Shown here one piece after another: positions 1 to 61,939 of a DNA stretch of 64,000 nt. Source of the DNA: a virus. The stretch covers positions 32,001 to 96,000 of IMG/VR virus record IMGVR_UViG_3300023174_003433. One strand, 5' to 3'. The notes beneath the pieces were generated by a model, which was not told the DNA's origin, made no database searches, and was given only the letters and a program-made list of their open reading frames with translations. Made by a program: the position numbers and the translations under genes. Position 1 is the stretch's first letter, and the number at the start of each line of letters is the position of its first letter.

Positions 1-497
1 TTAATTTTTTTTGAATCTGTGTTATTGTTTATCCAAATAGAGCCAAAACTAGGATTTTTTTGGCCAGTTCTTGTTCCTATCATTGATTTTTTTATATTTA
101 ACCTATGTTCTTTTGATTTTGGTTTTTTGTGTTTGTTTTTTGTTTCTTCTGAAAGTTTCCAAGTTTTGCCTTTGGAACCATTTGTTAATTTCCTAACTTT
201 CAAAAATTGATTTTTTTTAATTGTTTTTTCTTCTTCGGTTAAATTATTCCAAAATTCTTTACCTTTTTTAGATAAATGGTTTTTTATTGATTCTTGATTC
301 ATTATACCTTTAAGTATATCTTCTTTACCAATTAAACCGGCCAGTCCTTGCCAAGCATAATAATCTTGATATCTTCCTTGTTCTTCCCAAAGCAATTTAT
401 GAGCTTCGGCGTGTTCTTCAACAGTAAGTTCTATTAAGTTTGATGGATCATCAGTACCACCAGCGTGTTTTGGAATAATATGGTGTTTATGTTTCAT
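1..497 (-). mobile_element. Free-standing HNH homing endonuclease with NUMOD3-like basic C-terminal region (runs off left edge)
   Basis: Not in ORF track. Hand translation from ATG at 497: MKHKHHIIPKHAGGTDDPSNLIELTVEEHAEAHKLLW... (HH-IIP-x3-GG-x-D-x3-NL-x2-LT-x2-EH-x3-H signature), then KGKTWKLSEETKNK and GQKNPSFG motifs. Confidence 0.85.
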
Positions 498-498
498 A

Positions 499-1272
499 TC
501 AATTCATTAGAAATTCCAATGGCGCTCCGTATTCGGTTTGCATTTCGGTTTCCAGCTTCTCAATTTCACCTACCGCTTCTTCATAAATCTTATCACCATT
601 AAGTGTGACACCACCTGGTAACTGTAAGCCAGAAAACTTTTTGAGGTTATTTCCCCATGTTCGTTTAATTAAAGCGGTAGTATATTCTTTTAACCAACGG
701 TCATTCCACACACGATTATATGTTGTGGCATCAATACAAGCATAACATTCGGCAACTACAATTGTACCCGCTGGTGCTTCAGATGCTCCCCATGCCCAAT
801 CAATAAAGAGTTTTCCCATATGTCGTTGGAAACGAATAGGAACTTCTCCACTAAACAATAACTCTAGTGAACGTAAATGCTGTTGAGTTAAGGTATAATT
901 GACGTATGATGCGGAGGTGAAGTCGTAGAGTTCGTTTAGACGGAGTTGATACCGCAGGTCAAACATATTAATAGTTGCCTGAGAATCTTGAACTGGAAAA
1001 ATACGAGTAACGCCAACAATGTCCAAAGGAACATTGGCAGAATCTAACACATTGGTTAAATTCAAATATTGATTATTGACATCGGTATCCGTAATCCTTC
1101 GAATATAATAGATTTTTTGGAGACCATCAAAGTGGTAGTCTTGCCAATATTGAATGGCATCATCTATTCTATCTTCTAACTGGTCATCATCAATATTGAT
1201 TTCAATGACTGGAAAACCTAATCGTCTGAGGCAATAATCTTTGAGTGTTTGTCTACTAGTTACCGCTGGCAT
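499..1272 (-). CDS. gp13: Neck protein gp13
   Basis: LKDYCLRRLGFPVIEINIDDDQLEDRIDDA N-terminus and WGNNLKKFSGLQLPGGVTLNG C-terminus typical of T4-like gp13. Confidence 0.92.
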   Translation of the reverse strand: MPAVTSRQTLKDYCLRRLGFPVIEINIDDDQLEDRIDDAIQYWQDYHFDGLQKIYYIRRITDTDVNNQYLNLTNVLDSANVPLDIVGVTRIFPVQDSQATINMFDLRYQLRLNELYDFTSASYVNYTLTQQHLRSLELLFSGEVPIRFQRHMGKLFIDWAWGASEAPAGTIVVAECYACIDATTYNRVWNDRWLKEYTTALIKRTWGNNLKKFSGLQLPGGVTLNGDKIYEEAVGEIEKLETEMQTEYGAPLEFLMN

Positions 1273-1293: not shown

Positions 1294-1301
1294 TATTTAT
1301 A
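1294..1301 (-). promoter_or_regulatory. T4-type late promoter TATAAATA
   Basis: Exact TATAAATA about 20 nt upstream of gp13 start. Confidence 0.8.
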
Positions 1302-1312
1302 CCTTGTCCTGT

Positions 1313-2146
1313 TTATTGTATTCCAAGACTTTTCCTTATTTTGGTTGCGGAAATATCAGTAATTGATTTATCAAAAGACTCTTGTTCAATTTTATAACCT
1401 ACATCACGACCATAAGTAATATTTACAATGTTTGGTACCACCTGAATCTCATATTGACCTTGAAACAACGGATCCAAATCTCTACGGATGTATGATTTAA
1501 CTTGTTCAATGGCAAAAGGATTAGAACCTTGCCATCCTTGACAGTCACGGATTTGAATAACCACTTGACCAGTTTTGGCAATGGCTCGCTCAAATAAAGC
1601 TCGATGGCCTTCATGCCATGGTTGCCAACGACCTAACATCTGTACAGTTTCTTTCTGCCAGTCAAATGTTGGACGCCTACGATTCTCAATGATATGGTTA
1701 CCAATAAACTCAGCCCATTTTTCAGCATTTTGTTCTGTCACACGGAAGTCATATACTTCTGGTGGAATGAACGCTTTATTGGTATCTTCAAATCGACCTT
1801 TTTCAATTGTGTCCATCCAAATAGTCCAATCGGCTTTAAAGTTGTTTCTCATCTCAACCAATGGCGCCACAAAATCACAGATAACATAATCACCGCCAGC
1901 CTCTAAAGCAAACTGTGCCATTCTTAGAGATTGGCGAATACGACCAGCATCTGAGAAATCCCAATCATTATATTTTTTACGAACTTCATCAGCATTAAAC
2001 CAAGTGACTTGAGCATTAAAGCCTGTAATTGGCAACATCTCAGCAATATTATTCGTTGTACCGTTTTTTTCAAGGTATTTTTTTAAGGCTTCTGCCATAA
2101 ATGTTTTTCCAGAACCTGGTAATCCCATAATCAAAATCTTTTTCAT
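1313..2146 (-). CDS. cysC: Adenylylsulfate (APS) kinase-like domain fused to an HxGH nucleotidyltransferase domain
   Basis: P-loop GLPGSGKT, NADEVR, DFSDAGRIRQ, DFVAP as in APS kinase; C-terminal GRWQPWHEGH nucleotidyltransferase motif. Confidence 0.8.
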   Translation of the reverse strand: MKKILIMGLPGSGKTFMAEALKKYLEKNGTTNNIAEMLPITGFNAQVTWFNADEVRKKYNDWDFSDAGRIRQSLRMAQFALEAGGDYVICDFVAPLVEMRNNFKADWTIWMDTIEKGRFEDTNKAFIPPEVYDFRVTEQNAEKWAEFIGNHIIENRRRPTFDWQKETVQMLGRWQPWHEGHRALFERAIAKTGQVVIQIRDCQGWQGSNPFAIEQVKSYIRRDLDPLFQGQYEIQVVPNIVNITYGRDVGYKIEQESFDKSITDISATKIRKSLGIQ

Positions 2147-2156
2147 TTGTATTCCT

Positions 2157-2894
2157 TTATTGAGGTTTGCATAATAAATTATTTCCTACTACCTTATAAT
2201 CATATTCATACTGATCTAAAAATTGCTTGATATCATCTATAATAGTTTTTCTGTTGTCGCAGTGTTCCACAAATATAATAGGTAGGTGCTTTTTGATTGT
2301 ATTGGAGCCTCCAACTAAAACATCTAAGTCCATACCTTCTACATCTATCTTTAGCAGATGCACTTTAGGTATATTATAGTGTTCTAAAAACCAATCAATT
2401 GTGTGTATGTCAACAACGACTTTATTGTTTGTTTTTTCGGTAATAATATCTTCTACTAAACTAAAAGTACCAAAATCATTTTTTCTAAAGTAATTAGGTT
2501 CTTCAAATTCAATTTTAGTATTATCTTTACCTAATCCAATGTTGTATGGATATACATTATATAGATTGTTTATAGAAGCATTTCCACACAGCATTTTAAA
2601 CACTTCTCTTTGAGGCTCAAAAGAATATATTTTTCCTTGAGGAAAGGCTCTGGACATCCAAGTGGTAAACGTTCCTATATTGGCACCAATGTCAAATATT
2701 ATAGGTTCAGAATATTCTTTAATTGATTCATAACAATTGAATGCTTCAATCGTAGAAGTATTTCCATGATCTAATAACCATTGGCCATGACCAACTTGTT
2801 CACTATTACAATCAAATCGATTTACAATCATTAAACCGTGGTCACAACTCAGTAACACATTTCGGTGAACTTTATCACCTATATTAAAAACCAT
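2157..2894 (-). CDS. FkbM-family methyltransferase
   Basis: FDIGANIG, SFEPQ, LLKIDVEG motifs. Confidence 0.9.
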   Translation of the reverse strand: MVFNIGDKVHRNVLLSCDHGLMIVNRFDCNSEQVGHGQWLLDHGNTSTIEAFNCYESIKEYSEPIIFDIGANIGTFTTWMSRAFPQGKIYSFEPQREVFKMLCGNASINNLYNVYPYNIGLGKDNTKIEFEEPNYFRKNDFGTFSLVEDIITEKTNNKVVVDIHTIDWFLEHYNIPKVHLLKIDVEGMDLDVLVGGSNTIKKHLPIIFVEHCDNRKTIIDDIKQFLDQYEYDYKVVGNNLLCKPQ

Positions 2895-2895
2895 T

Positions 2896-3498
2896 CTATT
2901 CTTTCAACTTTTTAAAAGCCACTTGAAAAGAATCTGGTAAATGTATTAATTCTATTTTATGCCAATTACATTGTATAAACATCTCAATGCCCATTCTTGG
3001 AGAGAGTTGTACAGGAGCACTACCATGTTCATCAACAAGTTTCCAGCCTATAGAATCGTCACATAACATTACTCCGCCTACTGGCAGTAATCTCCAAGAT
3101 AGCATCATATCTTCTAGAACAGCAGCAGATGTATGGTCACCATCAACAAAAATAAATTCAGCTGTTTCTTTTTGATGAATCAACTCGACTAAAGCCTCAT
3201 AACTGTATTTGTTAATGTATGTTACATTGCCTACACACTTACTTAAATTATATTCAAACGTTCTTTTAATTGTTTTAAAATCAAAATTTGGATTATCATT
3301 TAATGTGGTGTGTGGATCAATGGCATATATTTTAAATTTATCATTATGAATTTTACCAAACTCTGAAACCCAAAATGTGGTTATTCCTTCAAAACAACCA
3401 ATTTCTATCATTGTGTTTGGTACACCAAACTTTTCAAATAAAAATTTAATATTCGTTTGAGTTCTTTCTCTACCCATATCGACTGTTGAAATATACAT
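2896..3498 (-). CDS. Class I SAM-dependent methyltransferase (Methyltransf_24-like)
   Basis: EIGCFEG, IDP, FIFVDGDH, GGVMLCDD motifs; start moved to ATG 3498 just after the upstream stop. Confidence 0.85.
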   Translation of the reverse strand: MYISTVDMGRERTQTNIKFLFEKFGVPNTMIEIGCFEGITTFWVSEFGKIHNDKFKIYAIDPHTTLNDNPNFDFKTIKRTFEYNLSKCVGNVTYINKYSYEALVELIHQKETAEFIFVDGDHTSAAVLEDMMLSWRLLPVGGVMLCDDSIGWKLVDEHGSAPVQLSPRMGIEMFIQCNWHKIELIHLPDSFQVAFKKLKE

Positions 3499-3499
3499 A

Positions 3500-4108
3500 T
3501 CAATTATTCTTTTTATGCCAATCAGCAAATCTTCCTGGCTTATGCACTCTGATAAAAATATTTACACTTTCACAGACATTCGCCATAGTATTTAAATTAA
3601 TGTCCATCTGTTTTGGTGCCAGCATACCATCTTGCTGTTGTTGTAACCAATAGCCAACCATATTGTAAGTCACATCATAAACTTCCAAATCTACGTCATG
3701 GTATAATCCAAATGTACTATCACTTAATTTTTTAGCAATAGATTCAAAATTTACTTTTTGGTCAAACATTTTAAAAGTTTTGGCAGTCAATGGCCTAACA
3801 TGAGTGTAATCGTCCCAAAACAAATCACACCGATGATGTGGTACATTGATAAACCATTCTGCTTGATCTGCACTTACTCGATACATTTCTTTAATAATAT
3901 TGGTAAAAACTTTTGGATCTTGACCTAAATGTTCCAAAACATTATCTGCTGTAATTTTTTCAAAGAAGTTATCTTCATATGGCCAAGGAGTTATTTCAAA
4001 ATCTAATACTTCATCAGGATTACATTTGGCTTCTACATCTACATTCCAATGGTCGTTTAATTTTTTAAATCCACAACCCATGTTTAGTTTTTTATTTTCT
4101 GGTGTCAT
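3500..4108 (-). CDS. Class I SAM-dependent methyltransferase (Methyltransf_11-like)
   Basis: KLNMGCG, NVD, VLEHL, EMYRV, DYTH motifs; start at ATG 4108 preceded by AAGGA. Confidence 0.8.
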   Translation of the reverse strand: MTPENKKLNMGCGFKKLNDHWNVDVEAKCNPDEVLDFEITPWPYEDNFFEKITADNVLEHLGQDPKVFTNIIKEMYRVSADQAEWFINVPHHRCDLFWDDYTHVRPLTAKTFKMFDQKVNFESIAKKLSDSTFGLYHDVDLEVYDVTYNMVGYWLQQQQDGMLAPKQMDINLNTMANVCESVNIFIRVHKPGRFADWHKKNN

Positions 4109-4122
4109 AATATATTCCTTTA

Positions 4123-4920
4123 TTAAATCCAAGCATTCCAAAATATTTCACGATTATACTGTTCGTAAATATCAAGTCCAAGATACTCTACACAATTAAC
4201 TGTGGTACGATCAAGTGATGGCTTAATCTTGTGTAAGTTAGGCAAACCAATTGCCAAATCATTATACACTTCTGTTTGAACAATCTTTTCAAAATCATGT
4301 TCAAACTTTGGTAGTTCTAAAAATTCATAGATACGTTTAGTTTGGCTTTTTGGACTATTGCAAAAACGATTGTAATCAATAAAAAGAAAACGATCCAAAT
4401 AACCCATTGTAATTGCATCTTTAATATTTCTATGAGATAATCCCATTGCGCCTTCTGGACCAGCATAGTAATAAGCTCTTGAAGCAATATTGGATCCTTC
4501 TCTTAAAGAAGAATCTGCTTTGGTAAAAAACAAAGGATTCTCTTTTCTAAGTTTTTCAAAAGAAGTTAAAATTTCGGCTGGGTTTCTAACACAAACAATA
4601 ATTTTAACTTTGCGATCCAAAATTGCTTCGACTTGTGGTAGTAGTGGAATCCATCCACGGTCTTTATCAACAATAATAGGCTTATCAATATGAGAATAAT
4701 ATCCCTGTAATACTGATTTTAAAACTCCAACTTTGGCATCTGTATTATTATATTCTTGATTTTGTTCCATACTAGACCAAGAAGCATTAATACTACCAAA
4801 TATAGAAGATAAAGAACTTACGGATTCTCCGTGAACTTCTGAATTTTGTTTGAGTATGTTTGTTATGAGAGTGGAACCTGATCTTGGGAGACCTGCCACA
4901 AAATGTATGGTTTTTTCCAT
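4123..4920 (-). CDS. Sulfotransferase
   Basis: 5'-PSB motif GLPRSGSTL, DK, 3'-PB motif VRNP..IL.S. Confidence 0.88.
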   Translation of the reverse strand: MEKTIHFVAGLPRSGSTLITNILKQNSEVHGESVSSLSSIFGSINASWSSMEQNQEYNNTDAKVGVLKSVLQGYYSHIDKPIIVDKDRGWIPLLPQVEAILDRKVKIIVCVRNPAEILTSFEKLRKENPLFFTKADSSLREGSNIASRAYYYAGPEGAMGLSHRNIKDAITMGYLDRFLFIDYNRFCNSPKSQTKRIYEFLELPKFEHDFEKIVQTEVYNDLAIGLPNLHKIKPSLDRTTVNCVEYLGLDIYEQYNREIFWNAWI

Positions 4921-4970
4921 GATTACCTTTCAGTTTAAAATTATAAAATCAAGATTTAACACTTGTTGTA

Positions 4971-4978
4971 TATTTATA
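4971..4978 (-). promoter_or_regulatory. T4-type late promoter TATAAATA
   Basis: Exact consensus about 50 nt upstream of the sulfotransferase start. Confidence 0.7.
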
Positions 4979-6035
4979 CGCTTATTTTTTCAGCTTTTTG
5001 TTTTTTAGTTTTTTGAGGAAAACGTTCTTTTAATTCATTAGAAACTTTTTGAAATGTATCTGTCCAATCTCCAAATTTAGTTTGCCTAAAAACTTTAGTG
5101 GTGTTTTGATACCAAGGACTATGATCTCCTCCATAAGCCCAAACATGATATGGTAACAATGGCACAATTACCCATGTGGGTTTACCCATTGCAGAAGCAA
5201 GATGAGCAATACTAGTACAAGAAGTAATAACTAAATCTAAATTAGCAATACATGCAGCTGTATCTTCCCAAGAAATTATTAAATGTTGAAGATCGGATAT
5301 TGCTTCAGGTAATTCTTTTACATCTGTATCTCTTTGCAAACTATAGAATTGTATATGAGGAAAATCTTTGTGTAAATTAATTAATTTTTCTGCAGGAAAA
5401 ATACGAAATTGCTGATGTTCAAAAAGAGGGCTACCACTCCAACGAATACCAACTTTTATTTTTTCTGTGTTTAACATTGTTTTCCAAAGATCGACACTTT
5501 CGTTTTTAGCAAAAATGTAAGGCTCGTTTGGTAAATTATCAAATTCATGTCCAAATAACCAGCTAGCACTAAATCCTGGAATCCAAAAATCATGATATGT
5601 TTGAGATACTTGGTCTAAAGTGATACATTCTTTAACACCAGGAATCCGTAGAAAGAGGGGGTGCAATAATTTTTCACAACACATAATACATTTACCGCCT
5701 CGTTTCCAAATTTCGGTGGCAAATCTAGCGTAAATCATTTGGTCGCCAAAACCACACTCCATATTTAAAATGACAGTTTTACCTTTTAAATCACTTTGAT
5801 CCCAAATTGGCTTAGTAGTGTTAATTTTACCACTACCATAAACTTTGAGTGCTCGTCCATTTTCAAGACATTGAAATCCTTCTTGTAATTTTCCTTGATT
5901 AATAAGAAACCAACCACGATTAAATTTTGCTTTTGGATCTGTAGGATCTAAAGCTTCCAATTCTTCAGCCAATTTCCAAGCTTCTTCAAATCTTCCTCTT
6001 ATCATCAAATTCAATTGCTGATCAATCATATGCAT
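4974..6035 (-). CDS. TPR-containing glycosyltransferase (GT9-like)
   Basis: N-terminal TPR; ECGFGDQMIYARF, KVGIRWSG, SLQ, DTAACIANLDLVITSCTSIAHLASAMGKPTW, SPWY, FRQ...GDW. Confidence 0.88.
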   Translation of the reverse strand: MHMIDQQLNLMIRGRFEEAWKLAEELEALDPTDPKAKFNRGWFLINQGKLQEGFQCLENGRALKVYGSGKINTTKPIWDQSDLKGKTVILNMECGFGDQMIYARFATEIWKRGGKCIMCCEKLLHPLFLRIPGVKECITLDQVSQTYHDFWIPGFSASWLFGHEFDNLPNEPYIFAKNESVDLWKTMLNTEKIKVGIRWSGSPLFEHQQFRIFPAEKLINLHKDFPHIQFYSLQRDTDVKELPEAISDLQHLIISWEDTAACIANLDLVITSCTSIAHLASAMGKPTWVIVPLLPYHVWAYGGDHSPWYQNTTKVFRQTKFGDWTDTFQKVSNELKERFPQKTKKQKAEKISV

Positions 6036-6067
6036 AATCTAAAACTCCTGTAAAATAATTATATAGA

Positions 6068-6074
6068 TATTTAG
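6068..6074 (-). promoter_or_regulatory. Late-promoter variant CTAAATA
   Basis: TAAATA core in the short gap about 33 nt upstream of the glycosyltransferase. Confidence 0.5.
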
Positions 6075-6083
6075 TAAAGCTTT

Positions 6084-9000
6084 TTATGAAATTCCTACTG
6101 TATGAGCATCACCACCAGCAGATACAGCAGTCCATGAGCTGGATCCTATTTGTACTGGACTGGATCTACTGGTAAGTGTACCATCTCCTAATCGGCCACT
6201 ACCATTATATCCCCACGTAAACAATGTACCACCAGAACGTATAGCTGCTGTATGTACACCACCAGCAGATACAGCAGTCCATGAGCTGGATCCTATTTGT
6301 ACTGGACTGGATTTACTGTTAATGGATCCACTTGTACCATCTCCTAATTGGCCTTGACCATTATATCCCCATGTAAACAAGGTACCACCAGAACGTATAG
6401 CTGCTGTATGATTACCACCAGCAGATACAGCAGTCCATGAGCTGGATCCTATTTGTACTGGACTGGATCTATTGATAAGTGTACCATCTCCTAATCGACC
6501 GACACTATTAGATCCCCATGTAAACAAGGTACCACCAGAACGAATAGCTGCTGTATGAATACTACCAGGACCAGCAGCCACAGCAGTCCATGAGCTGGAT
6601 CCTATTTGTACTGGACTGGATTTTTGAGTACCAAAACCACCAGTACCATCTCCTAATTGGCCATTACTATTAAGTCCCCACGTAAACAAAGTACCACCAG
6701 AACGAATAGCGACTGTGTGACTAAGACCACCAGCCACAGCAGTCCATGAGCTGGATCCTATTTGAACTGGACTGGATCTAGATGTGCTTGTACCATCTCC
6801 TAATTGGCCATATGTATTATTTCCCCATGTAAACAAGGTACCACCAGAACGAATAGCTGCTGTATGATCACGACCAGCACCTACAGCAGTCCATGAGCTG
6901 GATCCTATTTGAACTGGACTGGATCTACTAGTAGTTGTACCATCTCCTAATTGGCCAGCATTAACTCCCCATGTAAATAATCTTCCATCAGAACGAATAG
7001 CTGCTGTATGAGTACCACCAGCAGCCACAGCAGTCCATGAGCTGGATCCTATTAATAAGGGAGAAGGTAGAATAACCACAACATTATTGCCTACTGTTAT
7101 TGGACTGGATTTATTAGTTAATGATCCACCTGTACCATCTCCTAATTGGCCAGATTGATTATATCCCCATGTAAACAATATATTATCAGAACGAATAGCT
7201 GCTGTATGACCTCTACTTACGCTACTATTACCACCACCAGACACAGCAGTCCATGAGCTGGATCCTATTTGTATAGGACTGGATCTACTGACAATTGAAC
7301 TATTTCCTAATTGGCCTTGACCATTATATCCCCATGCAAACAGAGTACCACCAGAACGAATAGCTGCTGTATGCCTACCTCCAGCAGACACAGCAGTCCA
7401 GGAACTAGATCCTATTTGTACTGGCCTAGATTTAGCAACAGCTGTACCATCTCCTAATTGGCCACCAGTATTACCTCCCCATGTAAATAAGTAGCCATCA
7501 GAACGAATAGCTGCTGAATGAGATAAACCAGCAGTTACAACAGTCCATGACATAGATGCAAAATCGGATCCAATTTGTACTGGACTGGATTTACTGTTAA
7601 TGGCTCCACTTGTACCATCTCCTAATTGGCCATGAAAATTATATCCCCATGTAAATATTGTACCACCAGAACGTATAGCTGCTGTATGAGCATCACCACC
7701 AGACACAGCAGTCCATGAGCTGGATCCTATTTGTACTGGACTGGATCTATTGGTAAGTGTACCATCTCCTAATCGGCCATCACTTCTTTGAGAATTATTT
7801 CCCCATGTAAACAAATATCCATCAGAACGTATAGCTCCAGTATGATACCTACCAGCACCTACAGCAGTCCATGAGCTGGATCCTATTTGTACTGGACTGG
7901 ATTTGAGAGCAGTTGTACCATCTCCTAATTGGCCAGCACTATTAAATCCCCATGTAAATAGTGTACCACCGGAACGAATAGCTACTGCATGGTATTGGCC
8001 ACCAGCCACAGCAGTCCAAGAGCTAGATCCTATTTGTACTGGACTAGATTTAGAAACATTCGTACCATCTCCCAATTGGCCAAAAATACCTTGGCCCCAT
8101 GTAAACAACGTACCCCCAGAACGAATAGCTGTTGAATGCCGGCGCCCAGCAGCCACAGCAGTCCATGAACTAGATCCTATTTGAACTGGACTGGAGCTAC
8201 TAGTAGTTGTACCATCTCCTAATTGGCCATTATTATTATAACCCCATGTAAACAAGTAACCATCAGAACGAATAGCTGCTGTATGATCATTTACACTACC
8301 AGCAGCTACAGCAGTCCATGAGCTGGATCCTATTTGTACAGGACTGGAGCTACTAGTAGTTGTACCATCTCCTAACTGGCCATTGTTATTAAATCCCCAC
8401 GTAAATAATGTGCCACCAGATCGAATAGCTACTGTATGCTTAGCACCAGTACTCACAGCAGTCCATGAACTGGATCCAATTTGAACTGGACTGGATCTAG
8501 AAGTGGTTGTACCATCTCCTAAACATCCAGGATTATTATAACCCCATGTAAATAAATATCCATCAGAACGAATAGCTGCTACATGCGCATAACCAGTAGA
8601 CACAACAGTCCAACTCGCAGAACTTGCAATTACAACTGGACTTGATTGCACTATATTAATGAATCCTATTTGTACAGGACTGGATCTATTGGTAAGTGTA
8701 CTATCTCCCACTTGGCCCGCAGTATTAATTCCCCATGTAAATAATAAATTATCAGAACGAATAGCTCCCGCATGATAACCACCAGTACTCACAGCAGTCC
8801 ATGAGCTGGATCCTATTTGTACAGGACTGGAGCTACTAGTAGTTGTACCATCTCCTAACTGGCCACCGCTATTAAATCCCCACGTAAATAATGTGCCACC
8901 AGATCGAATAGCTGCTGTGAAAGCTGCGCCAGCATTTATTACAGTCCAGGAACTAGATCCTATTTGAATCGGACTGGATTTGCTATTAGCATCACCGGAT

Positions 9001-11450
9001 GTACTATCACCTATTTGTCCTCTGTAATTACCTCCCCATGTAAATAAGGTACCACCAGAACGAATAGCTGCTGTATGAGAACCACCAGCAGATACAGCAG
9101 TCCATGAGCTGGATCCTATTTGAACTGGACTGGATAGTGAAACAAGATTATTTCCAACCGTTACTGGACTGCTTTGCCTGAACCGTGTGCCAAAACTAAT
9201 TTGTCCTAATTGGCCATAATTATTAATTCCCCATGTAAATAAGGCACTATAAAAACCACTAGAACGAACAGCTGCTGTATAATATCGGCCAGCAGACACA
9301 GCAGTCCATGAACTAGATCCTATTTGTACTGGACTGGATTTATCAGCAGTTGTACCATCTCCCAATTGGCCTTGGGCATTTCGACCCCATGTAAACAAAG
9401 TACCACCAGAACGAATAGCTGTTGTATGATCGTTACCACCAGACACAGCAGTCCATGAGCTGGATCCTATTTGAACTGGACTGGATCTAGATGTGCTTGT
9501 ACCATCTCCTAATCGACCTTGGCCATTAGATCCCCATGTAAACAAGTAACCATCAGAACGAATAGCTGCTGTATGATAAGCACCAGCATTTACAGCAGTC
9601 CATGAACTAGATCCTATTTGAACCGGACTGGATTTAGCAACAGCTGTACCATCTCCTAATTGGCCATAATTATTTTGGCCCCATGTAAATAATAAATTAT
9701 CAGAACGTATAGCAATTCCATGTCGAGCACCAGCATCTACAACAGTCCATGAGCTGGATCCTATTTGTACAGGACTGGATCTATTGGTGGTACCACCATC
9801 TCCTAACTGACCAGTACTATTATATCCCCATGTAAACAAGGTACCACCAGAACGAATAGCTGCTGTATGAGATAAACCAGCAGTTACAACAGTCCAAGAG
9901 CTGGATCCAATTTGAACTGGACTGGACCTATTAAAACCAGAAGTCCCATCACCCACTTGTCCTCTGTAATTACCTCCCCATGCAAACAAATATCCATCAG
10001 AACGAATAGCTGCTGTATGAGTACCACCAGCAGCCACAGCAGTCCAAGAGCTGGATCCAATTTGAACTGGACTAGATTTACCAACAATTGTACTATCTCC
10101 TAATTGGCCTTGGGTATTTCGACCCCATGTAAATAATAAATTATCAGAACGAATAGCTGCTGTATGGTAACCACCTACAGACACAACAGTCCAGCTAGAT
10201 AAATTTGTTAGTGACTCATTTCCAATTTGGCCCGCACTTCCAAGACCCCATGTAAACAAGTATCCAATATTATTAATAGCTGCTGTATGAGTACCACCAG
10301 CACTTACAGCAGTCCATGAGCTGGATCCTATTTGAACTGGACTAGATTTATCAGCAGTTGTACCATCTCCTAATTGGCCTTGAAGATTATATCCCCATGT
10401 AAATAAGGTACCACCAGAACGAATAGCAGTTGTATGAAAAAAACCAGCATCTACAACAGTCCATGAGCTGGATCCTATTTGTACAGGACTGGATCTATTG
10501 GTAGTTGTATTATCTCCTAATCGACCGTTTCCATTACCTCCCCATGTGAACAAGGTACCACCAGAACGAATAGCAACTGTATGAACATAACCAGCACTCA
10601 CAGCAGTCCATGAGCTAGAGCCTATTTGTACTGGACTGGATCTAGTGGTAGTTGTACTATCTCCTAATTGACCATAATTATTTCGTCCCCATGTAAATAA
10701 TAAATTATCGGAACGAATAGCAGCTGTATGAGAACCATTAACAGACACAACAGTCCAGCTAAGCAAAGCTGTTGTATCTCCTTGCCCCAACTGGCCAGAA
10801 CCATTAAGTCCCCATGTAAATAAGGTACCACCAGAACGAACAGCCATTGTATGAAGAGCACCAGCAGCTACAGCAGTCCATGAGCTGGATCCTATTTGTA
10901 TTGGACTGGATTTATTGGTAAGTGTACCATCTCCTAATTGGCCTTGACCATTATATCCCCATGTAAACAAGTAACCATCAGAACGAATAGCTGCTGTATG
11001 ATTACCACCAGCAGCCACAGCAGTCCATGAACTGGATCCTATTTGTACTGGACTAGATTTATTGAAAGTTGTACTATCTCCTAATTTGCCATATTGATTA
11101 AATCCCCATGTGAACAAAGTACCACCAGAACGAAGAGCAGCTGTATGTCTAAATCCAGCAGACACAGCAGTCCATGAGCTGGATCCAATTTGAACTGGAC
11201 TGGATCTAGTGGTAGTTGTATTATCACCTAATACGCCATTATTATATCCCCATGTAAACAAGTAACCATCAGAACGAATAGCTGCTGTATGAGAACCACC
11301 AGCACTTACAGCAGTCCAACTGGATAAAGGTGTTGTTACAGTTGTTCCTAACTGGCCATAAGCATTATTTCCCCATGTGTATAAAAATTTATTCTCGGCT
11401 GGAGCAGCTGCAGAAGCACCTTTAGCTAAAAGTTGTTCAATGAATAACAT
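6084..11450 (-). CDS. Giant RCC1-repeat beta-propeller protein (35 blades), probable virion adhesin
   Basis: 35 (T/A)WG-xN-xx-GQLG repeats of about 49-51 aa, consensus WTAVSAGGxHTAAIRSGGTLFTWGxNxxGQLGDGTTxxxSSPVQIGSSS. Confidence 0.92.
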   Translation of the reverse strand: MLFIEQLLAKGASAAAPAENKFLYTWGNNAYGQLGTTVTTPLSSWTAVSAGGSHTAAIRSDGYLFTWGYNNGVLGDNTTTTRSSPVQIGSSSWTAVSAGFRHTAALRSGGTLFTWGFNQYGKLGDSTTFNKSSPVQIGSSSWTAVAAGGNHTAAIRSDGYLFTWGYNGQGQLGDGTLTNKSSPIQIGSSSWTAVAAGALHTMAVRSGGTLFTWGLNGSGQLGQGDTTALLSWTVVSVNGSHTAAIRSDNLLFTWGRNNYGQLGDSTTTTRSSPVQIGSSSWTAVSAGYVHTVAIRSGGTLFTWGGNGNGRLGDNTTTNRSSPVQIGSSSWTVVDAGFFHTTAIRSGGTLFTWGYNLQGQLGDGTTADKSSPVQIGSSSWTAVSAGGTHTAAINNIGYLFTWGLGSAGQIGNESLTNLSSWTVVSVGGYHTAAIRSDNLLFTWGRNTQGQLGDSTIVGKSSPVQIGSSSWTAVAAGGTHTAAIRSDGYLFAWGGNYRGQVGDGTSGFNRSSPVQIGSSSWTVVTAGLSHTAAIRSGGTLFTWGYNSTGQLGDGGTTNRSSPVQIGSSSWTVVDAGARHGIAIRSDNLLFTWGQNNYGQLGDGTAVAKSSPVQIGSSSWTAVNAGAYHTAAIRSDGYLFTWGSNGQGRLGDGTSTSRSSPVQIGSSSWTAVSGGNDHTTAIRSGGTLFTWGRNAQGQLGDGTTADKSSPVQIGSSSWTAVSAGRYYTAAVRSSGFYSALFTWGINNYGQLGQISFGTRFRQSSPVTVGNNLVSLSSPVQIGSSSWTAVSAGGSHTAAIRSGGTLFTWGGNYRGQIGDSTSGDANSKSSPIQIGSSSWTVINAGAAFTAAIRSGGTLFTWGFNSGGQLGDGTTTSSSSPVQIGSSSWTAVSTGGYHAGAIRSDNLLFTWGINTAGQVGDSTLTNRSSPVQIGFINIVQSSPVVIASSASWTVVSTGYAHVAAIRSDGYLFTWGYNNPGCLGDGTTTSRSSPVQIGSSSWTAVSTGAKHTVAIRSGGTLFTWGFNNNGQLGDGTTTSSSSPVQIGSSSWTAVAAGSVNDHTAAIRSDGYLFTWGYNNNGQLGDGTTTSSSSPVQIGSSSWTAVAAGRRHSTAIRSGGTLFTWGQGIFGQLGDGTNVSKSSPVQIGSSSWTAVAGGQYHAVAIRSGGTLFTWGFNSAGQLGDGTTALKSSPVQIGSSSWTAVGAGRYHTGAIRSDGYLFTWGNNSQRSDGRLGDGTLTNRSSPVQIGSSSWTAVSGGDAHTAAIRSGGTIFTWGYNFHGQLGDGTSGAINSKSSPVQIGSDFASMSWTVVTAGLSHSAAIRSDGYLFTWGGNTGGQLGDGTAVAKSRPVQIGSSSWTAVSAGGRHTAAIRSGGTLFAWGYNGQGQLGNSSIVSRSSPIQIGSSSWTAVSGGGNSSVSRGHTAAIRSDNILFTWGYNQSGQLGDGTGGSLTNKSSPITVGNNVVVILPSPLLIGSSSWTAVAAGGTHTAAIRSDGRLFTWGVNAGQLGDGTTTSRSSPVQIGSSSWTAVGAGRDHTAAIRSGGTLFTWGNNTYGQLGDGTSTSRSSPVQIGSSSWTAVAGGLSHTVAIRSGGTLFTWGLNSNGQLGDGTGGFGTQKSSPVQIGSSSWTAVAAGPGSIHTAAIRSGGTLFTWGSNSVGRLGDGTLINRSSPVQIGSSSWTAVSAGGNHTAAIRSGGTLFTWGYNGQGQLGDGTSGSINSKSSPVQIGSSSWTAVSAGGVHTAAIRSGGTLFTWGYNGSGRLGDGTLTSRSSPVQIGSSSWTAVSAGGDAHTVGIS
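6110..11330. repeat. Coding tandem repeat (about 147-156 bp period) underlying the RCC1 blades
   Basis: Near-identical block GCAGTCCATGAGCTGGATCCTATTTG(T/A)ACTGGACTGGAT recurs in most blades. Confidence 0.9.
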
Positions 11451-11945
11451 TTAATTTTCTAATGATGGCCAATTGACTTGAGCAATATTCACAACCTCAT
11501 TTTCTGAATATACTTGTATAATATCTCTTAGAGCTTGTCGATATATAATCCATTTATTTTTGGTGTTTTCATCAAATAAATTTTGTACATCTTGTAATTG
11601 AGTCCAATCAGAACTAACTAACAATTCATTTCTTTTTTTTCTTAGTTCTTCTATAAATCTATATTTTAAAGTAGAGAATTCTTCAACAGGTTCTGGTTGT
11701 CTTTCAGTTATAATAATACTTTCTAAAACATCATTCTCTCTAATCTCATAATTATATCCACTTACATAATGGGTTAAATCATTCCACGTTTCATTTTGTT
11801 TAGTTACAGGATACCAACCTACAGATTTTAAAAAAGGCAAATCATCAGCAGCCAAATTTAGTCCGCTTACATTTCTCCAATTATTAGGTAGTAAGTCATA
11901 CTGACCTGTAATTTCATTATTTTCTATGTGTACCCAATTTGCCAT
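11451..11945 (-). CDS. Phage tail fibre assembly chaperone-like protein
   Basis: LRKKRNELLVSSDWTQLQD...WIIYRQALRDI...VNWP motif. Confidence 0.8.
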   Translation of the reverse strand: MANWVHIENNEITGQYDLLPNNWRNVSGLNLAADDLPFLKSVGWYPVTKQNETWNDLTHYVSGYNYEIRENDVLESIIITERQPEPVEEFSTLKYRFIEELRKKRNELLVSSDWTQLQDVQNLFDENTKNKWIIYRQALRDIIQVYSENEVVNIAQVNWPSLEN

Positions 11946-11957
11946 TTTTAATATCCG

Positions 11958-12518
11958 TTATTTGCTGTCTACCATAGAGGCCACACCTCGCCAATTTAAA
12001 CCGCCGTCATCTGTGATAAATGTTAACACATCAACACCGGCCGCTGTAAGAGATGGAGCTGTACCTCCAGGCCATTTGACTGCCGAAGGCCAAGTTAATG
12101 CTGCAGAGCCTCCATTGGTAAGCTCTAAAACAAAACCGATGGCAGCCGGCGGTGCAATTGGATTAGAAAATACCCAAGTTGTAACACCCGTTACAGTTGC
12201 TGATACATAATTACCTAAAGTTAAATCTATGGTTCTAGTACCAGAACCAGCACCCAATACATTATGTGTTGTACCATATTGAGTAATTGCTCTGTTACTG
12301 TTTATGTATGGAGAACCCAATATAGAATATGAATTGGCTGTTATGATACCAGTATGCGAACTTAATAAAACTTCTACGTTGGTGACTTGTGTGCCACCAA
12401 CAGGTAAAGTTTTGAAAAGCCGATTTGATGTTGGGTCATACACCTCATCACCAAGCCGTTGGCCGTTTAATGAGGTGTTTGCCGATACTACATGCCGAAT
12501 ATAATCCCGAGAGGACAT
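11958..12518 (-). CDS. Tail-fibre-associated adaptor protein
   Basis: C-terminal LTWPSAVKWPGGTAPSLTAAGVDVLTF module common in phage fibre genes; start MSSRDY at 12518 with GGAGG RBS. Confidence 0.6.
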   Translation of the reverse strand: MSSRDYIRHVVSANTSLNGQRLGDEVYDPTSNRLFKTLPVGGTQVTNVEVLLSSHTGIITANSYSILGSPYINSNRAITQYGTTHNVLGAGSGTRTIDLTLGNYVSATVTGVTTWVFSNPIAPPAAIGFVLELTNGGSAALTWPSAVKWPGGTAPSLTAAGVDVLTFITDDGGLNWRGVASMVDSK

Positions 12519-12528
12519 TTTACCTCCC

Positions 12529-18046: not shown

Positions 18047-18054
18047 TATTTATA
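18047..18054 (-). promoter_or_regulatory. T4-type late promoter TATAAATA
   Basis: Exact consensus 28 nt upstream of the 18019 start. Confidence 0.75.
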
Positions 18055-18769
18055 GACCGTATCTTCCACGGCTGGCATTGAAATTGTTTAAAACTTCATT
18101 ACCAGAAAGTTCTATGGTGTAACATCTTATTGCATAAATGTCTGAATTGGTGGCATAATTTTTATCATTTGACCATCCACCAATACATAAAGTATCTCCA
18201 TATGCATTCATTCCATTATTACTAAGATAATCAAATGTACTGGTTGCTATCAACACACCATTGATATAGCTTTTAACAATACCATTATTATAAGTCATTA
18301 CGGAATGCACAATTGTTCCTGGTGCCACAGTAGCAACGTTTGCAACTAAAGCTCCTGTCCAACAGTTACCCGTTTTAATGGCGTGTTGTATGATAGTATT
18401 TGCTCCATCGGGAGCCAAATAAATTCCACCATGGCAACCAATTCTACCCACAAGAAATGATTCACCTGAAACTGGAGATGAGATGTTTTTCCATAAACCT
18501 TCTAATGACCAAGTGCCTGTTAAATTTGTACTTTTTAAAACTCCCTCATTAAAACTGGCGGACATCCAAGATTTATTGGTACTTGGATTTGTATTATCAT
18601 TTCTAACCTGAAATGAATTGGCTGTAAATGTAACAGAATTGGCTGTTATTGTATAATTTTTATTTGAAAGGTCTTTTACTGAAGTACTTAAATTTGATTT
18701 GGAATTATTTGCATCCAAATAAAATATCAGGCCTGCAGTAGTAACAAGAGGTCCACCAAATACACTCAT
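18050..18769 (-). CDS. LamG/concanavalin-A-like lectin domain protein (paralog 3)
   Basis: GLIFYLDANNSKS...HSVMTYNNG..KSYINGVL...LSGNEVLNNFNASRGRYGL. Confidence 0.8.
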   Translation of the reverse strand: MSVFGGPLVTTAGLIFYLDANNSKSNLSTSVKDLSNKNYTITANSVTFTANSFQVRNDNTNPSTNKSWMSASFNEGVLKSTNLTGTWSLEGLWKNISSPVSGESFLVGRIGCHGGIYLAPDGANTIIQHAIKTGNCWTGALVANVATVAPGTIVHSVMTYNNGIVKSYINGVLIATSTFDYLSNNGMNAYGDTLCIGGWSNDKNYATNSDIYAIRCYTIELSGNEVLNNFNASRGRYGL

Positions 18770-19410
18770 AGTTGATACCTTCCACGAGTAGCATTAAAGT
18801 TTTGTTGTATTTCTTGTGCAGTTAATACACGATCATATACAAAAGCTCCGTTTATTTGTCCTTGAAAATTGTTACTATTACCATATGCTGCAACCTGCAC
18901 ATCTCCAGTACCGGTGAAAGTAGTAGTTGCTACGTCAGTATCTTCTAATAAACCATTTAAATATAATGCCCAACCTGTTGTAGTACTAAATGTAACTGCA
19001 CCAAAATACCATCGATTTGCTAAAAGAGATGTATTTGATTGAACGATATACCACGATCCATTGTGGCCAGAATTTAATTTATCACCACTCGACAACCAAA
19101 AAGCGTGTTGGCCATTATTACCACTCATAATATTATTGGTTGCTGCTAAATTTTGTGTTTGAAACCAAGCGCATTTTGTATACGCAGTTGAGTTTAAAAG
19201 ATTATTAGATGTACTAGCATACTGAGATCCGTTAAAAGAAAATATATTATTTGCTCCTACTGTTGGTGAACCAACTAGGGTAAAAGAGTTTGTATTGGTA
19301 CTTAAATTAGTCCATGTGGTACCTGAACCTGAATAACTTTTTGAATTAACTGAATCCAAATATAAAGTTAATCCGTTAGTAACAATAGAAGGTGAATGAT
19401 TAAGTCCCAT
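18766..19410 (-). CDS. LamG/concanavalin-A-like lectin domain protein (paralog 2)
   Basis: IVTNGLTLYLDSVNSKSYSGSG...WYFGAVTF..LYLNG...VYDRVLTAQEIQQNFNATRGRY. Confidence 0.85.
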   Translation of the reverse strand: MGLNHSPSIVTNGLTLYLDSVNSKSYSGSGTTWTNLSTNTNSFTLVGSPTVGANNIFSFNGSQYASTSNNLLNSTAYTKCAWFQTQNLAATNNIMSGNNGQHAFWLSSGDKLNSGHNGSWYIVQSNTSLLANRWYFGAVTFSTTTGWALYLNGLLEDTDVATTTFTGTGDVQVAAYGNSNNFQGQINGAFVYDRVLTAQEIQQNFNATRGRYQL

Positions 19411-20081
19411 TATAGGTTATACCTTCCACGGAGGGCATTGAAGTTTTGTGTAATTTCTGCTGATGTTAATGTTCTATTATAAACTTTTACAGAAGATATA
19501 TCACCAGCATAGTTAATAAAGAAATTATTTAAATATATTAATGGTACATGAGCATATGCACCACCATCACCGTTGTACATAGTTTTTGGTGAATTGTTAA
19601 TATAGAATTGGTAGTTTGTTGTTTCCCAATTAAAAACGATGTGATTCCATCCAGCGCTTATACTATCCTTTATTGCTGTTCTATAATAAACAGAACTAAT
19701 GTATGACACAAAAGTTAAAGTTTCTCCCGTAACAAAGCCGGTTGAAGCTCCAAAAGTACAATAACCTTGACTAAAAGTATCATAATTAAAAAAGTTGGTA
19801 GGAGCCGATGCACTTGTTATCGTATTCGGTAAGTTGATCCAAAACTCACAACTGTACATGTAACTATTAGTATTACCAGAATTACCCATAGTGGCTGTTG
19901 TTGGTGAAAATGTTATGGCATTGTTTGCAAATGTTGGTGTCTGGGAAAATATTCCGTTATTATTACTACCACTTAAATCAGTCCATATTGTACCAGAACC
20001 AGGATAACTTTTTCGATTGGCTGCATCTAAAGCCAACACCAAACCACTAGTTACTATCTGTGGATTATAATTGGTGCCCAT
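19410..20081 (-). CDS. LamG/concanavalin-A-like lectin domain protein (paralog 1)
   Basis: IVTSGLVLALDAANRKSYPGSG...WNHIVF..FYIN...VYNRTLTSAEITQNFNALRGRY. Confidence 0.85.
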   Translation of the reverse strand: MGTNYNPQIVTSGLVLALDAANRKSYPGSGTIWTDLSGSNNNGIFSQTPTFANNAITFSPTTATMGNSGNTNSYMYSCEFWINLPNTITSASAPTNFFNYDTFSQGYCTFGASTGFVTGETLTFVSYISSVYYRTAIKDSISAGWNHIVFNWETTNYQFYINNSPKTMYNGDGGAYAHVPLIYLNNFFINYAGDISSVKVYNRTLTSAEITQNFNALRGRYNL

Positions 20082-48338: not shown

Positions 48339-48366
48339 TGATTTCTCTTTTTAGATTGAATATACA

Positions 48367-48374
48367 TATTTATA
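48367..48374 (-). promoter_or_regulatory. T4-type late promoter TATAAATA in the divergent gp48/gp4 gap
   Basis: Exact consensus on the minus strand 29 nt upstream of gp48; an overlapping TATACATA on the plus strand may serve gp4. Confidence 0.7.
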
Positions 48375-61151: not shown

Positions 61152-61154
61152 AAT

Positions 61155-61928: not shown

Positions 61929-61939
61929 TTTTATTTCCT

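Follow-up and report, generated by a model that had tools for sequence, protein, structure and literature searches.

The 64,000-nucleotide stretch analysed in this study (the window; positions 32,001 to 96,000 of the IMG/VR virus record IMGVR_UViG_3300023174_003433) is part of an incomplete 117.7 kb contig of a T4-like myovirus (36% G+C) and contains six minus-strand open reading frames (ORFs; 1313-6035) between the gene of a 1788-aa RCC1-repeat protein and the neck gene gp13. This cassette is probably a late-expressed system for the post-translational modification of the neighbouring RCC1 protein. The RCC1 protein itself appears to be the substrate of at least the glycosyltransferase (GT), as suggested by the linkage of the genes, a tetratricopeptide-repeat (TPR) module in the GT and the likeness of the sulfotransferase to tyrosylprotein sulfotransferases (TPSTs). 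An earlier sequence-only reading of the window had proposed a phage-encoded enzyme set for the decoration of a structural protein, plausibly the RCC1 protein, and this central idea proved to be the best-supported one. What was observed directly is the gene content, the folds of two of the proteins, the intactness of their cofactor motifs, a single exact late-promoter motif, the position in a late gene run and a wide RCC1/GT9/methyltransferase linkage. The content and order of the six co-oriented genes, as first proposed, were borne out by ORF calls, by searches against Pfam, PHROGs and NCBIfam, and by the fold of the GT. The features are as follows (APS, adenosine 5'-phosphosulfate; NMNAT, nicotinamide mononucleotide adenylyltransferase; SAM, S-adenosylmethionine).

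1313-2146, minus strand: fusion of an APS-kinase-like P-loop kinase and an NMNAT-like nucleotidyltransferase, 277 aa (APS_kinase, 3.8e-7; CTP_transf_like)
2157-2894, minus strand: FkbM methyltransferase, 245 aa (PF05050, 1.6e-25; TIGR01444, 5e-33)
2896-3528, minus strand: Methyltransf_24 (TylF/O-methyltransferase-like) protein, 210 aa (PF13578, 1.8e-16)
3500-4141, minus strand: class I SAM methyltransferase 'MTx', 213 aa (phrog_6636 'methyltransferase', 9e-10)
4123-4920, minus strand: sulfotransferase, 265 aa (Pfam Sulfotransfer_1/3, E 1e-15 / 9e-14)
4974-6035, minus strand: GT-B, GT9-fold glycosyltransferase with TPR-like N-terminus, 353 aa (AlphaFold model and structural comparison)
6084-11450, minus strand: RCC1-repeat protein, 1788 aa (Pfam RCC1/RCC1_2/WD40_RLD, E = 0, 34 stretches)

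Linkage of the RCC1 gene with the cassette

Viral relatives anchored on the sulfotransferase comprised 70 loci (52-97% identity; 47 distinct sequences, 33 clusters at 90% and 11 at 70%). The GT gene was located directly upstream of the sulfotransferase gene in 64 of these loci, with five of the others ending at a contig edge and one showing a single intervening ORF. In 55 of the 64 loci, the ORF directly upstream of the GT gene encoded an RCC1 protein. The remaining nine included six at an edge, one (L044) with the RCC1 gene one gene away, and two (L051, L058) with the RCC1 gene downstream of the methyltransferase gene; the linkage between the RCC1 and GT genes survives rearrangement (L044, L058, L055). 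A GT-anchored viral scan (536 relatives, of which the best 79 loci were used) yielded 19 further contigs, which carried genes for an RCC1 protein (19/19), the core methyltransferase MTx (15), a sulfotransferase (6) and the kinase fusion (1). Complete cassettes, defined as loci spanning the region from the GT gene to gp13, were available in 42 cases. All of them encoded MTx, whereas the kinase fusion (31/42, at varying positions inside the cassette), the FkbM methyltransferase (29/42) and the Methyltransf_24 protein (14/42) were found in subsets.

The same arrangement was observed in two cultured cyanophages with 30-43% GT identity. The order is gp8-like - fibre - chaperone - RCC1 (700 aa, annotated 'BNR') - GT in BUCT-ZZ01, and RCC1 - GT - oxygenase ... 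RCC1 - sulfotransferase - GT2/Methyltransf_24 in S-SRM01. The GT of BUCT-ZZ01 is a 571-aa protein in which the GT (residues 1-365, 40%) is fused to the core methyltransferase (residues 379-566, 45%), which argues for a common substrate of the two enzymes. Among viral proteins, the closest in structure to the GT was likewise one of 571 aa, from an uncultured phage (template modelling score 0.92).

In a bacterial GT scan (380 relatives, of which the best 80 were used), an RCC1 gene was detected in 35 of the 46 loci with at least 36% GT identity, at a median distance of 1.8 kb (8 of the 11 loci without it were contigs of no more than 4.4 kb), and in only 2 of the 34 loci below 36%. The RCC1-linked loci were mostly from Bdellovibrionota, together with contigs of metagenome-assembled genomes labelled Patescibacteria and others, which may be viral. 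In a complete chromosome of Bdellovibrio bacteriovorus, the order is 1038-aa protein - GT - methyltransferase-like ORF - two RCC1 proteins of ~1080 aa, with housekeeping genes on the flanks. These RCC1 proteins begin with twin-arginine (Tat) signal peptides, which suggests that their folding takes place in the cytoplasm, the compartment of the signal-less GT, and that modification could precede export. The co-occurrence of the cassette with RCC1 genes, named as a check in the earlier reading, was strongly positive in both viral sets, in the bacterial loci and in the two cyanophages. The conserved core is composed of the RCC1 protein, the TPR-GT9 enzyme and one class I methyltransferase; the sulfotransferase, the kinase fusion, the FkbM methyltransferase and the Methyltransf_24 protein are additions of one phage branch.

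Enzymes, sugar donor and transcription

The AlphaFold model of the GT (predicted local distance difference test score, pLDDT, 91; predicted template modelling score 0.90) comprises TPR-like helical hairpins (residues 1-62) and a GT-B fold (residues ~85-340), with no membrane segment visible. The top fold matches in VIA-align were 3tov (Z 18.2), WaaF (1psw, 18.0), WaaC (16.5-16.7) and TibC (4rap, 16.3), with root-mean-square deviations of 2.9-3.3 over 230-246 residues for the GT9 enzymes, followed by the next fold class at Z 12.2; Foldseek returned the GT9 fold with an E-value of 4e-7. The GT gave no match to Pfam PF01075 Glyco_transf_9 at E<=0.01 (only TPR_2 at E 0.009) and a match to NCBIfam TIGR02193 with E 0.0085 over 34 residues (15.3 bits vs a cut-off of 185), and the database members of its family carried no precomputed Pfam domain. 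Because sequence-only searches against the PDB gave only weak TPR matches, the fold search was needed for the GT9 call. The previous designation as TPR-GT9 was thereby upheld by the gap between the GT9 matches and the next fold class, though no sequence model reports GT9. By its model, the protein would represent a new TPR-bearing branch of GT9-fold enzymes, and it is proposed to be a protein O-heptosyltransferase. In an alignment of 37 relatives, the G-x-G-D98 motif after the first strand was kept in 36 sequences, whereas the C-lobe motif reads S-C-T-S..H, with Cys273 in 34 sequences and Asp in only 3 paralogues (D-T-[GS]..H). By the positions in WaaC, an Asp after the first strand is the candidate catalytic residue of GT9 enzymes, and D-[ST]-G..H is their C-lobe sugar-nucleotide motif.

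At least 2082 GT homologues are present in the database. A second, longer GT paralogue (393-434 aa, 19-27% identity) is encoded in L028, L029, L030, L034 and L062, and three of these five carry Asp where the main GT has Cys. A podovirus (L075; MW202512, 7446-10879) encodes a 525-aa TPR + GT homologue ~0.5 kb downstream of its major capsid gene, with two small ORFs between them; genes for an endonuclease, a methyltransferase and a GT8 enzyme come next, and the homologue is possibly a capsid-directed version of the same enzyme family. Distant homologues with long TPR arrays in Caballeronia and Azospirillum (31-33% identity) were found in housekeeping contexts that revealed no substrate.

A profile of 34 relatives of the sulfotransferase was compared with the PDB. 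The best matches were human TPST1/2 (E 7e-8 to 4e-6, with TPST1 at 7e-8), followed by CurM/olefin-synthase sulfotransferases and then cytosolic sulfotransferases (SULTs). Similarly, the model of the protein (pLDDT 88) gave TPSTs for each of the first seven structural matches (Z 18.1-19.3, with 235-239 of its 265 residues aligned), followed by the CurM sulfotransferase (15.8) and heparan 3-O-sulfotransferases (14.4). The loop GLPRSGST (GxPRSG(S/T)T), which binds 3'-phosphoadenosine-5'-phosphosulfate (PAPS), and R112 and S120 of the 3'-phosphate site were invariant among the 34 sequences. E32, which we take to be the counterpart of the TPST catalytic base, was present in 28 of them and was aligned by HMMER within the 'GEET' segment of TPST1. 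By profile and fold, the enzyme thus appears to be PAPS-dependent and closest to the protein-tyrosine sulfotransferases. Since it resembles these more than carbohydrate enzymes, the sulfate may be placed directly onto protein. This qualifies the sulfated glycan postulated earlier. In some relatives, 2-oxoglutarate (2OG)-Fe(II) oxygenases of the peptide-hydroxylase type are encoded directly behind the sulfotransferase.

The 213-aa methyltransferase MTx has a TTG start, its gene overlaps the sulfotransferase stop codon, and it gave no Pfam match; it falls among Atlas clusters named class I SAM methyltransferase or Methyltransf_11. The Methyltransf_24 ORF showed a weak NCBIfam match to a rhamnosyl O-methyltransferase (E 0.0026), and the FkbM ORF matched the model V_cholerae_RfbT (E 8e-8). 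Sequence searches against the PDB were uninformative for the three methyltransferases (best E 0.45, 0.034 and 0.036).

The proposed substrate is made up of ~34 blades that extend from residue 20 to the last residue and are preceded by a short N-terminal peptide (MLFIEQLLAK...) kept in relatives. Its repeat unit reads 'WG.N..GQLGDGTTT.RSSPVQIGSSSWTAV.AG..HT.AIRS.G.LFT', with conserved Ser/Thr in each blade. The string 'SSPVQIGSSSW' is present in nearly every blade, its 'GSSSW' part being replaced by 'TNW/TDW' in the RCC1 proteins of cyanophage S-SRM01 and Bdellovibrio. The Ser/Thr-rich loops GTTTSRSSP and IGSSSW, singled out earlier as the plausible sites of decoration, turned out to be ordinary repeat consensus with no special insertions. 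They were rejected as special glycosylation sites, IGSSSW being only partly shared by GT-linked RCC1 proteins elsewhere, and no glycosylation sequon could be defined from the GT-linked RCC1 repeats. The RCC1 proteins of relatives (L015-L030, L035, L065) fall into two N-terminus classes, one with a short 'MLLIEQLLAK' peptide, as in the window protein, and the other with a longer 'MPTTSFRV.G.DLD.LFEPIG...KRADV.Y.V.G.DISN.Y' domain, which suggests exchangeable attachment modules. The orthologue of locus L069 is a natural single propeller of 318 aa. The window protein is probably fibre- or neck-associated in the virion.

Heptose-pathway genes were found in 10 of the 42 complete cassettes of relatives. 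They encode a heptose-7-P kinase (1.5e-38), a heptose-1-P adenylyltransferase (1.4e-29 to 5e-33), a fused HldE (5.7e-87) and an ADP-glyceromanno-heptose 6-epimerase (6.5e-63 to about 7e-63), with NCBIfam scores under the equivalog cut-offs, yet for what are by far the best-matching families; they are accompanied by genes for a small phosphatase and a cupin. ADP-heptose is the likely donor because the GT has a GT9 fold and relatives carry these genes. Other cassettes add GT2, GT25, GT1 and GT10-like enzymes, a DegT aminotransferase, a GDP-mannose dehydratase, a formyltransferase, a TylF-type methyltransferase and 2OG-Fe(II) oxygenases. Judged by gene content, the decoration evidently varies between phages. 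Elsewhere in the contig of the window, a stand-alone cytidylyltransferase-like protein (PF01467, 9.8e-12) is encoded at contig positions 5929-6405 (L156, minus strand), between clamp-loader genes and far from the cassette.

Two late promoters had been proposed for the cassette. One of them is an exact T4-type late-promoter motif, as is a further copy in front of gp13:

4971-4978, minus strand: exact TATAAATA, 50 nt upstream of the sulfotransferase start
1294-1301, minus strand: exact TATAAATA, 21 nt before gp13, marking the 3' border of the cassette transcription unit

The other proposed promoter, at 6068-6074 ahead of the GT gene, reads CTAAATA on the minus strand (6/8 to the T4 late consensus) and is unconvincing. 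Each of the six window copies of TATAAATA is on the coding strand; across the whole contig, 10 of 11 copies are followed by a same-strand ORF start at a distance of 4-69 nt. In relatives, NATAAATA was present within 100 nt upstream of gp13 (38/44), the sulfotransferase gene (24/68) and the GT gene (23/60), as compared with the RCC1 gene (1/48), the core methyltransferase gene (2/67), the FkbM gene (1/43), the kinase fusion gene (0/34) and the Methyltransf_24 gene (0/16). The cassette is therefore likely to be expressed late, as far as promoter motifs can indicate.

Proposed mechanism and alternatives

In the proposed mechanism, the TPR+GT9 enzyme would bind the RCC1 protein via its short TPR-like N-terminus in the cytoplasm of the infected cell and transfer heptose from host-made ADP-heptose to side-chain hydroxyls repeated from blade to blade. 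The sugar may then be O-methylated by the core methyltransferase MTx, with the FkbM and Methyltransf_24 proteins as accessory enzymes, while the TPST-like sulfotransferase would add sulfate from PAPS to the sugar or straight to protein tyrosines, and the APS-kinase-like half of the fusion could raise the PAPS supply. The order of these steps, the acceptor residues, the virion location and the kinase product are what we infer from these data.

Several observations weigh against this mechanism. With regard to the linkage, the phage loci are related, many of them being near-duplicates, and part of the synteny is inherited. Apart from a conserved N-terminus of 10 residues, no virion-attachment domain was recognised in the RCC1 protein, and its role as an adhesin or other virion component is suggested by gene position alone. 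The TPR segment of the GT is short (~two repeats) with weak scores (E 0.009 and 0.0016). Because the GT carries Cys where 3 paralogues carry Asp, its donor specificity may differ. GT9 enzymes classically act on the lipopolysaccharide (LPS) core, and in fold the GT matches LPS heptosyltransferases (Z 16.5-18.2) at least as well as TibC. Compared with TibC, the model of the phage GT is helical in residues 1-62 instead of forming a beta-barrel, and a conserved four-Cys set is absent (C56, C94, C116, C119, C120, C137 and C262 vary). No ADP-heptose genes were detected in the contig of the window by tblastn with four pathway proteins of L018, the only match being a 28%-identical nucleotidyltransferase elsewhere, namely the protein at contig positions 5929-6405, which is thus a distant counterpart of the heptose-1-P adenylyltransferase of relatives. 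Since its own contig is devoid of pathway genes, the phage would depend on host ADP-heptose; the decoration system is thus not fully self-contained, as had been assumed earlier. Concerning timing, TATAAATA does not exceed its chance frequency in the window overall (6 found vs 9.7 expected). Three metatranscriptome libraries from lakes yielded contigs that match portions of four cassette genes with 90-99% likeness, but these may reflect DNA carry-over and are silent on strand, starts and timing, and uncovered bins carry no meaning.

An alternative target for the enzymes is the host envelope. The GT9 enzyme could attach heptose to the LPS core or to a different glycan of the envelope, with methylation and sulfation to follow, so as to block superinfection or to stop progeny from sticking to debris, with the RCC1 gene as a mere neighbour in a hypervariable fibre region. 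This scenario would agree with WaaF/WaaC and an uncharacterised GT9 protein as the best fold matches, with the few database copies of the GT auto-named 'ADP-heptose:LPS heptosyltransferase', with the resemblance of the FkbM enzyme to the O-antigen methyltransferase RfbT and with the polysaccharide genes (GT2, GT25, GT1, GT10, DegT, GDP-mannose dehydratase) added in relatives. Moreover, cyanomyovirus genomes carry LPS-like gene clusters. It is nevertheless quite improbable. Chance neighbourhood cannot account for an RCC1/GT pairing that is kept across phage lineages (30-43% GT identity) and on Bdellovibrionota chromosomes outside LPS loci, the model of the GT starts with a TPR-like segment and shows nothing that spans a membrane, and a late structural run with a late-promoter motif would be late, though possible, for envelope remodelling. 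The RCC1 protein rather than LPS is favoured as the acceptor because the linkage is deep and rearrangement-proof and includes bacterial loci outside LPS clusters, because the GT has a TPR-like N-terminus, because the GT9-fold enzymes TibC and Aah heptosylate repeat adhesins encoded next to them, because the bacterial RCC1 partners carry Tat signals and because the sulfotransferase is nearest to TPST. Modification of phage DNA or synthesis of a free small molecule, with no protein involved, is highly improbable. DNA-hypermodifying phage glycosyltransferases are well known, and the Methyltransf_24 protein weakly matches a PHROG 'DNA methyltransferase' (E 5.8e-6). However, no base-hydroxymethylase, TET/JBP-like or DNA-binding domain was found in the cassette in Pfam, PHROGs and NCBIfam searches, and the late structural position, the RCC1 linkage, the TPR module and the TPST-like fold point elsewhere, as does the presence of the same module in bacterial chromosomes beside secreted RCC1 proteins. 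DNA modification, already disfavoured in the earlier reading, gained nothing from these tests. A mixed model, in which the GT9 enzyme and the methyltransferases place methyl-heptose on the RCC1 protein while a true tyrosylprotein sulfotransferase acts independently of the glycan, is somewhat unlikely, as is its corollary that sulfated tyrosines occur in the RCC1 protein (e.g. in the recurrent ...SDGYLFTWGYN...) or another virion protein. Still, judged by profile and fold, direct tyrosine sulfation of the RCC1 protein would be a serious variant of the proposed mechanism. TPST1/2 lead both the profile matches and the structural ranks, with carbohydrate sulfotransferases at only 14.4, E32 is aligned within the TPST1 'GEET' segment, and the sulfotransferase is an add-on that is absent from 13 of the 19 GT-anchored viral and 33 of the 46 bacterial loci. 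On the other hand, identity to TPST is only 12-14%, the gap to CurM-type sulfotransferases (Z 15.8), which act on small-molecule hydroxyls, is moderate, and the repeat tyrosines are placed in what are predicted to be strands of the blades, not in flexible acidic peptides. In addition, the sulfotransferase was never found without the GT in the loci examined (64/70 directly adjacent), which also fits a glycan acceptor.

The role of the kinase fusion (kinase, ~residues 1-150; HxGH nucleotidyltransferase, ~165-277) as PAPS supplier, as assumed in the earlier reading, is plausible but contested on the basis of its sequence relationships. The Pfam score for PF01583 APS_kinase (30.7 bits vs a gathering score of 21.1) lies above the cut-off, and in profile searches against the PDB the APS kinases 2yvu (1.4e-5), 2gks and PAPSS1 were matched besides NadM (2qjt, 1.8e-6). 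The kinase half aligns to APS kinases through ~60 residues behind the P-loop, presumably the APS-binding segment, with 'FVAP' of the phage fusion aligned to 'FVSP' of the kinase. Among GT-carrying loci, the fusion was present in 36 of the 89 with a sulfotransferase and in none of the 46 without it (Fisher p 1.7e-8; the loci are related, often truncated and not phylogenetically independent). Alternatively, the fusion may serve nucleotide or cofactor salvage, e.g. as a NadR-like nicotinamide riboside kinase plus NMN (nicotinamide mononucleotide) adenylyltransferase restoring NAD+, and merely lie at the edge of the cassette, which is a considerable though lesser possibility. The C-terminal half is closest to NMN adenylyltransferases (2qjt, E 1.8e-6; NCBIfam NF002243, 4.2e-6) and has a GRxQPxHxGH motif. 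Its HxGH/ISxTxxR nucleotidyltransferase site is intact, and the motifs GRWQPWHxGH, YGRDVGY and ISxT..R are invariant among fusion sequences. Furthermore, all NCBIfam APS-kinase models score far below their cut-offs (TIGR00455 and PRK05541, 23-25 bits vs 127-139). Fusion homologues number at least 8000 and are mostly viral. Full-length ones (35-40% identity) are encoded by cultured phages of Xylella, Stenotrophomonas and Xanthomonas, in which the search found no homologue of this sulfotransferase, and adjoin a NADAR-domain gene (Xylella phage Bacata) or replication and DNA-metabolism genes (DLP_6), which likewise weighs against a dedicated PAPS supply. A 192-aa neighbour in Bacata was dropped as a sulfotransferase candidate (sub-threshold Sulfotransfer_4 match, E 9e-4; hhalign probability of 2.8% against this sulfotransferase). 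The salvage function is countered, in turn, by the Pfam match, by the alignment behind the P-loop, by the restriction of the fusion to GT loci with a sulfotransferase and by its varying positions in the cassette, not at the edge alone. The nucleotidyltransferase half was rejected as a heptose-1-P adenylyltransferase, and it should have some other role because a separate gene for this activity (RfaE domain II) adjoins the fusion in L015/L018, which is also at odds with cofactor salvage. A wider proposition, rather doubtful at present, combines these elements: the RCC1 propeller, the TPR-GT9 heptosyltransferase and the class I methyltransferase may form an ancient mobile module of T4-like freshwater phages, cyanophages and Bdellovibrionota that yields surface proteins for the binding of prey or hosts, heavily decorated with heptose and methyl groups and, in a single branch of the phages, also with sulfate, with the 277-aa fusion acting as a minimal virus-specific PAPS synthase (NMNAT-like sulfate adenylyltransferase plus APS kinase). 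If so, that branch would provide the first sulfated phage virion protein.

Genome context and comparison with known systems

The cassette is placed between fibre genes and the genes gp13-gp20. Its closest neighbours are the following.

11958-12581, minus strand: fibre protein, first of the block transcribed toward gp13
11451-11945, minus strand: tail-fibre assembly chaperone (PF16778 Phage_tail_APC, 3.4e-13; PHROG tail fibre assembly)
499-1272, minus strand: gp13-type neck protein (phrog_211, E 8e-41; best tblastn matches named 'neck protein')

The chaperone gene is located directly upstream of the RCC1 gene, its stop codon abutting the RCC1 start, and is preceded on the minus strand by the baseplate genes gp25, gp6, gp8, gp53 and a gp5-like gene, a gene for a 2094-aa DUF4815 protein and fibre genes. 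The gp13 gene is the first of a conserved gp13-gp14-gp15-gp16-gp17-gp18 run and is followed by gp14, gp15, gp16, gp17 and the sheath, tube and portal genes. Between gp13 and gp14, an HNH homing-endonuclease-like ORF (window 3-497, minus strand; phrog_655, 3.7e-18) gave no tblastn match in any of the 70 related loci and therefore looks like a recent insertion. A megablast search of the first 12 kb against the phage collection revealed no close relative among deposited phages, and freshwater and lake metagenomes of several studies hold the stretch at a high word share.

Other genes of the contig were noted in passing. Three tandem Laminin_G_3 (concanavalin-like lectin) proteins of 214-239 aa are encoded in the fibre region (window 18050-20081, minus strand), the first gene being preceded by an exact TATAAATA at 18047-18054. 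A protein with a TnsA-like endonuclease N-terminal domain (window 48338-48808, plus strand; PF08722, 2.3e-24) is encoded where the baseplate gene blocks diverge, and the gene of a Druantia DruA domain protein (PF14236, 5.9e-20; contig 9829-11094, L156, minus strand) adjoins a peptide deformylase gene. A second cluster of likely peptide-modifying genes (window 59032-63838, minus strand) encodes proteins of the Asp/Asn beta-hydroxylase family (59032-59634 and 61155-61928), a B12-binding radical SAM protein (59631-61151) and a 2OG-FeII_Oxy_5 protein (63128-63838); another gene of the radical SAM type is located immediately outside the window (L158:1496-2950).

If the proposed mechanism is correct, a function would be given to a set of genes common among the phages of lakes (at least 2082 GT and at least 8000 fusion homologues), most of which are currently annotated as hypothetical or classed with the sulfur 'auxiliary metabolic genes', and caution would be needed in reading viral cysC-like genes as sulfur assimilation. 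A new TPR-bearing GT9-fold branch would act on proteins, and phage fibres and secreted RCC1 proteins of Bdellovibrio would share their modification machinery, hinting at a common logic of prey and host recognition. The pair would also lend itself to testing how surface charge and glycans affect virion adsorption, stability and grazing resistance.

The individual enzymes have established counterparts. WaaC/WaaF (CAZy GT9) resemble the phage GT in fold, in the retained G-x-G-D and in that ADP-heptose genes lie beside the GT gene in relatives; the phage enzyme differs in its extra TPR-like N-terminus, in Cys for Asp in 34/37 sequences and in having an RCC1 partner rather than LPS genes. TPST1/2 are the nearest solved relatives of the phage sulfotransferase, which keeps the PAPS loop and the Arg/Ser pair but shows 12-14% identity, lacks a membrane anchor and may act on a sugar. 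RaxST is a bacterial tyrosylprotein sulfotransferase. To our knowledge, glycosylated phage particles have so far been demonstrated experimentally in mycobacteriophages, and we know of no report of sulfated ones. In the literature searched (subscription journals and supplements lay outside its scope), no account of an RCC1/GT9 pairing or of sulfated phage proteins was found.

At the level of whole systems, phage-encoded glycosyltransferases of the mycobacteriophages Che8 and Rita decorate the phages' own structural proteins (Freeman et al. 2023, as summarised in PMC11256854). As far as that summary goes, other GT families, actinobacterial hosts, and capsid and tail-tube targets are involved, with no sulfation, no dedicated repeat-protein substrate and no ADP-heptose link, so that the likeness is one of principle only. 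The function of phage sulfotransferases 'remains unclear' according to a 2023 paper (PMC10580990). Iyer et al. 2010 predicted that co-encoded tail-collar and collagen-like proteins are hydroxylated and then sulfated by the products of linked hydroxylase, sulfotransferase and PAPS-synthetase genes (PMC2938197). The accessible text of that paper does not mention RCC1 (0 occurrences), GT9 or heptose, and the cassette of the window is without an oxygenase, although two Asp/Asn hydroxylases and a 2OG oxygenase are encoded at 59-64 kb of the window.

The closest parallel is provided by the bacterial autotransporter heptosyltransferases (BAHTs; TibC/TibA, Aah/AIDA-I), in which a GT9-fold (GT-B) enzyme is likewise encoded beside a large repeat-rich protein. 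According to PMC4358343, TibC, with Asp-110 as candidate catalytic residue, heptosylates serines of the adhesin encoded beside it, and BAHTs transfer heptose from ADP-heptose onto many repeat serines in the cytoplasm, before export or assembly. The same source describes an N-terminal beta-barrel, a beta-hairpin thumb, a four-Cys iron finger and a dodecameric ring as BAHT features. The phage GT resembles TibC with Z 16.3 over 242 residues, but, by its model and sequence, it is not to be counted as a BAHT member. In the phage system, the presumed substrate is a beta-propeller rather than a beta-helix, and methyl and sulfate transferases are added. What appears to be new, by sequence and model, is a branch of GT9-fold enzymes that bears a TPR module and is paired with a new kind of partner protein, in phages and predatory bacteria alike. 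By analogy, the system would work like the adhesin/heptosyltransferase pairs TibA/TibC and AIDA-I/Aah, in an extended form placed within a phage late structural operon.

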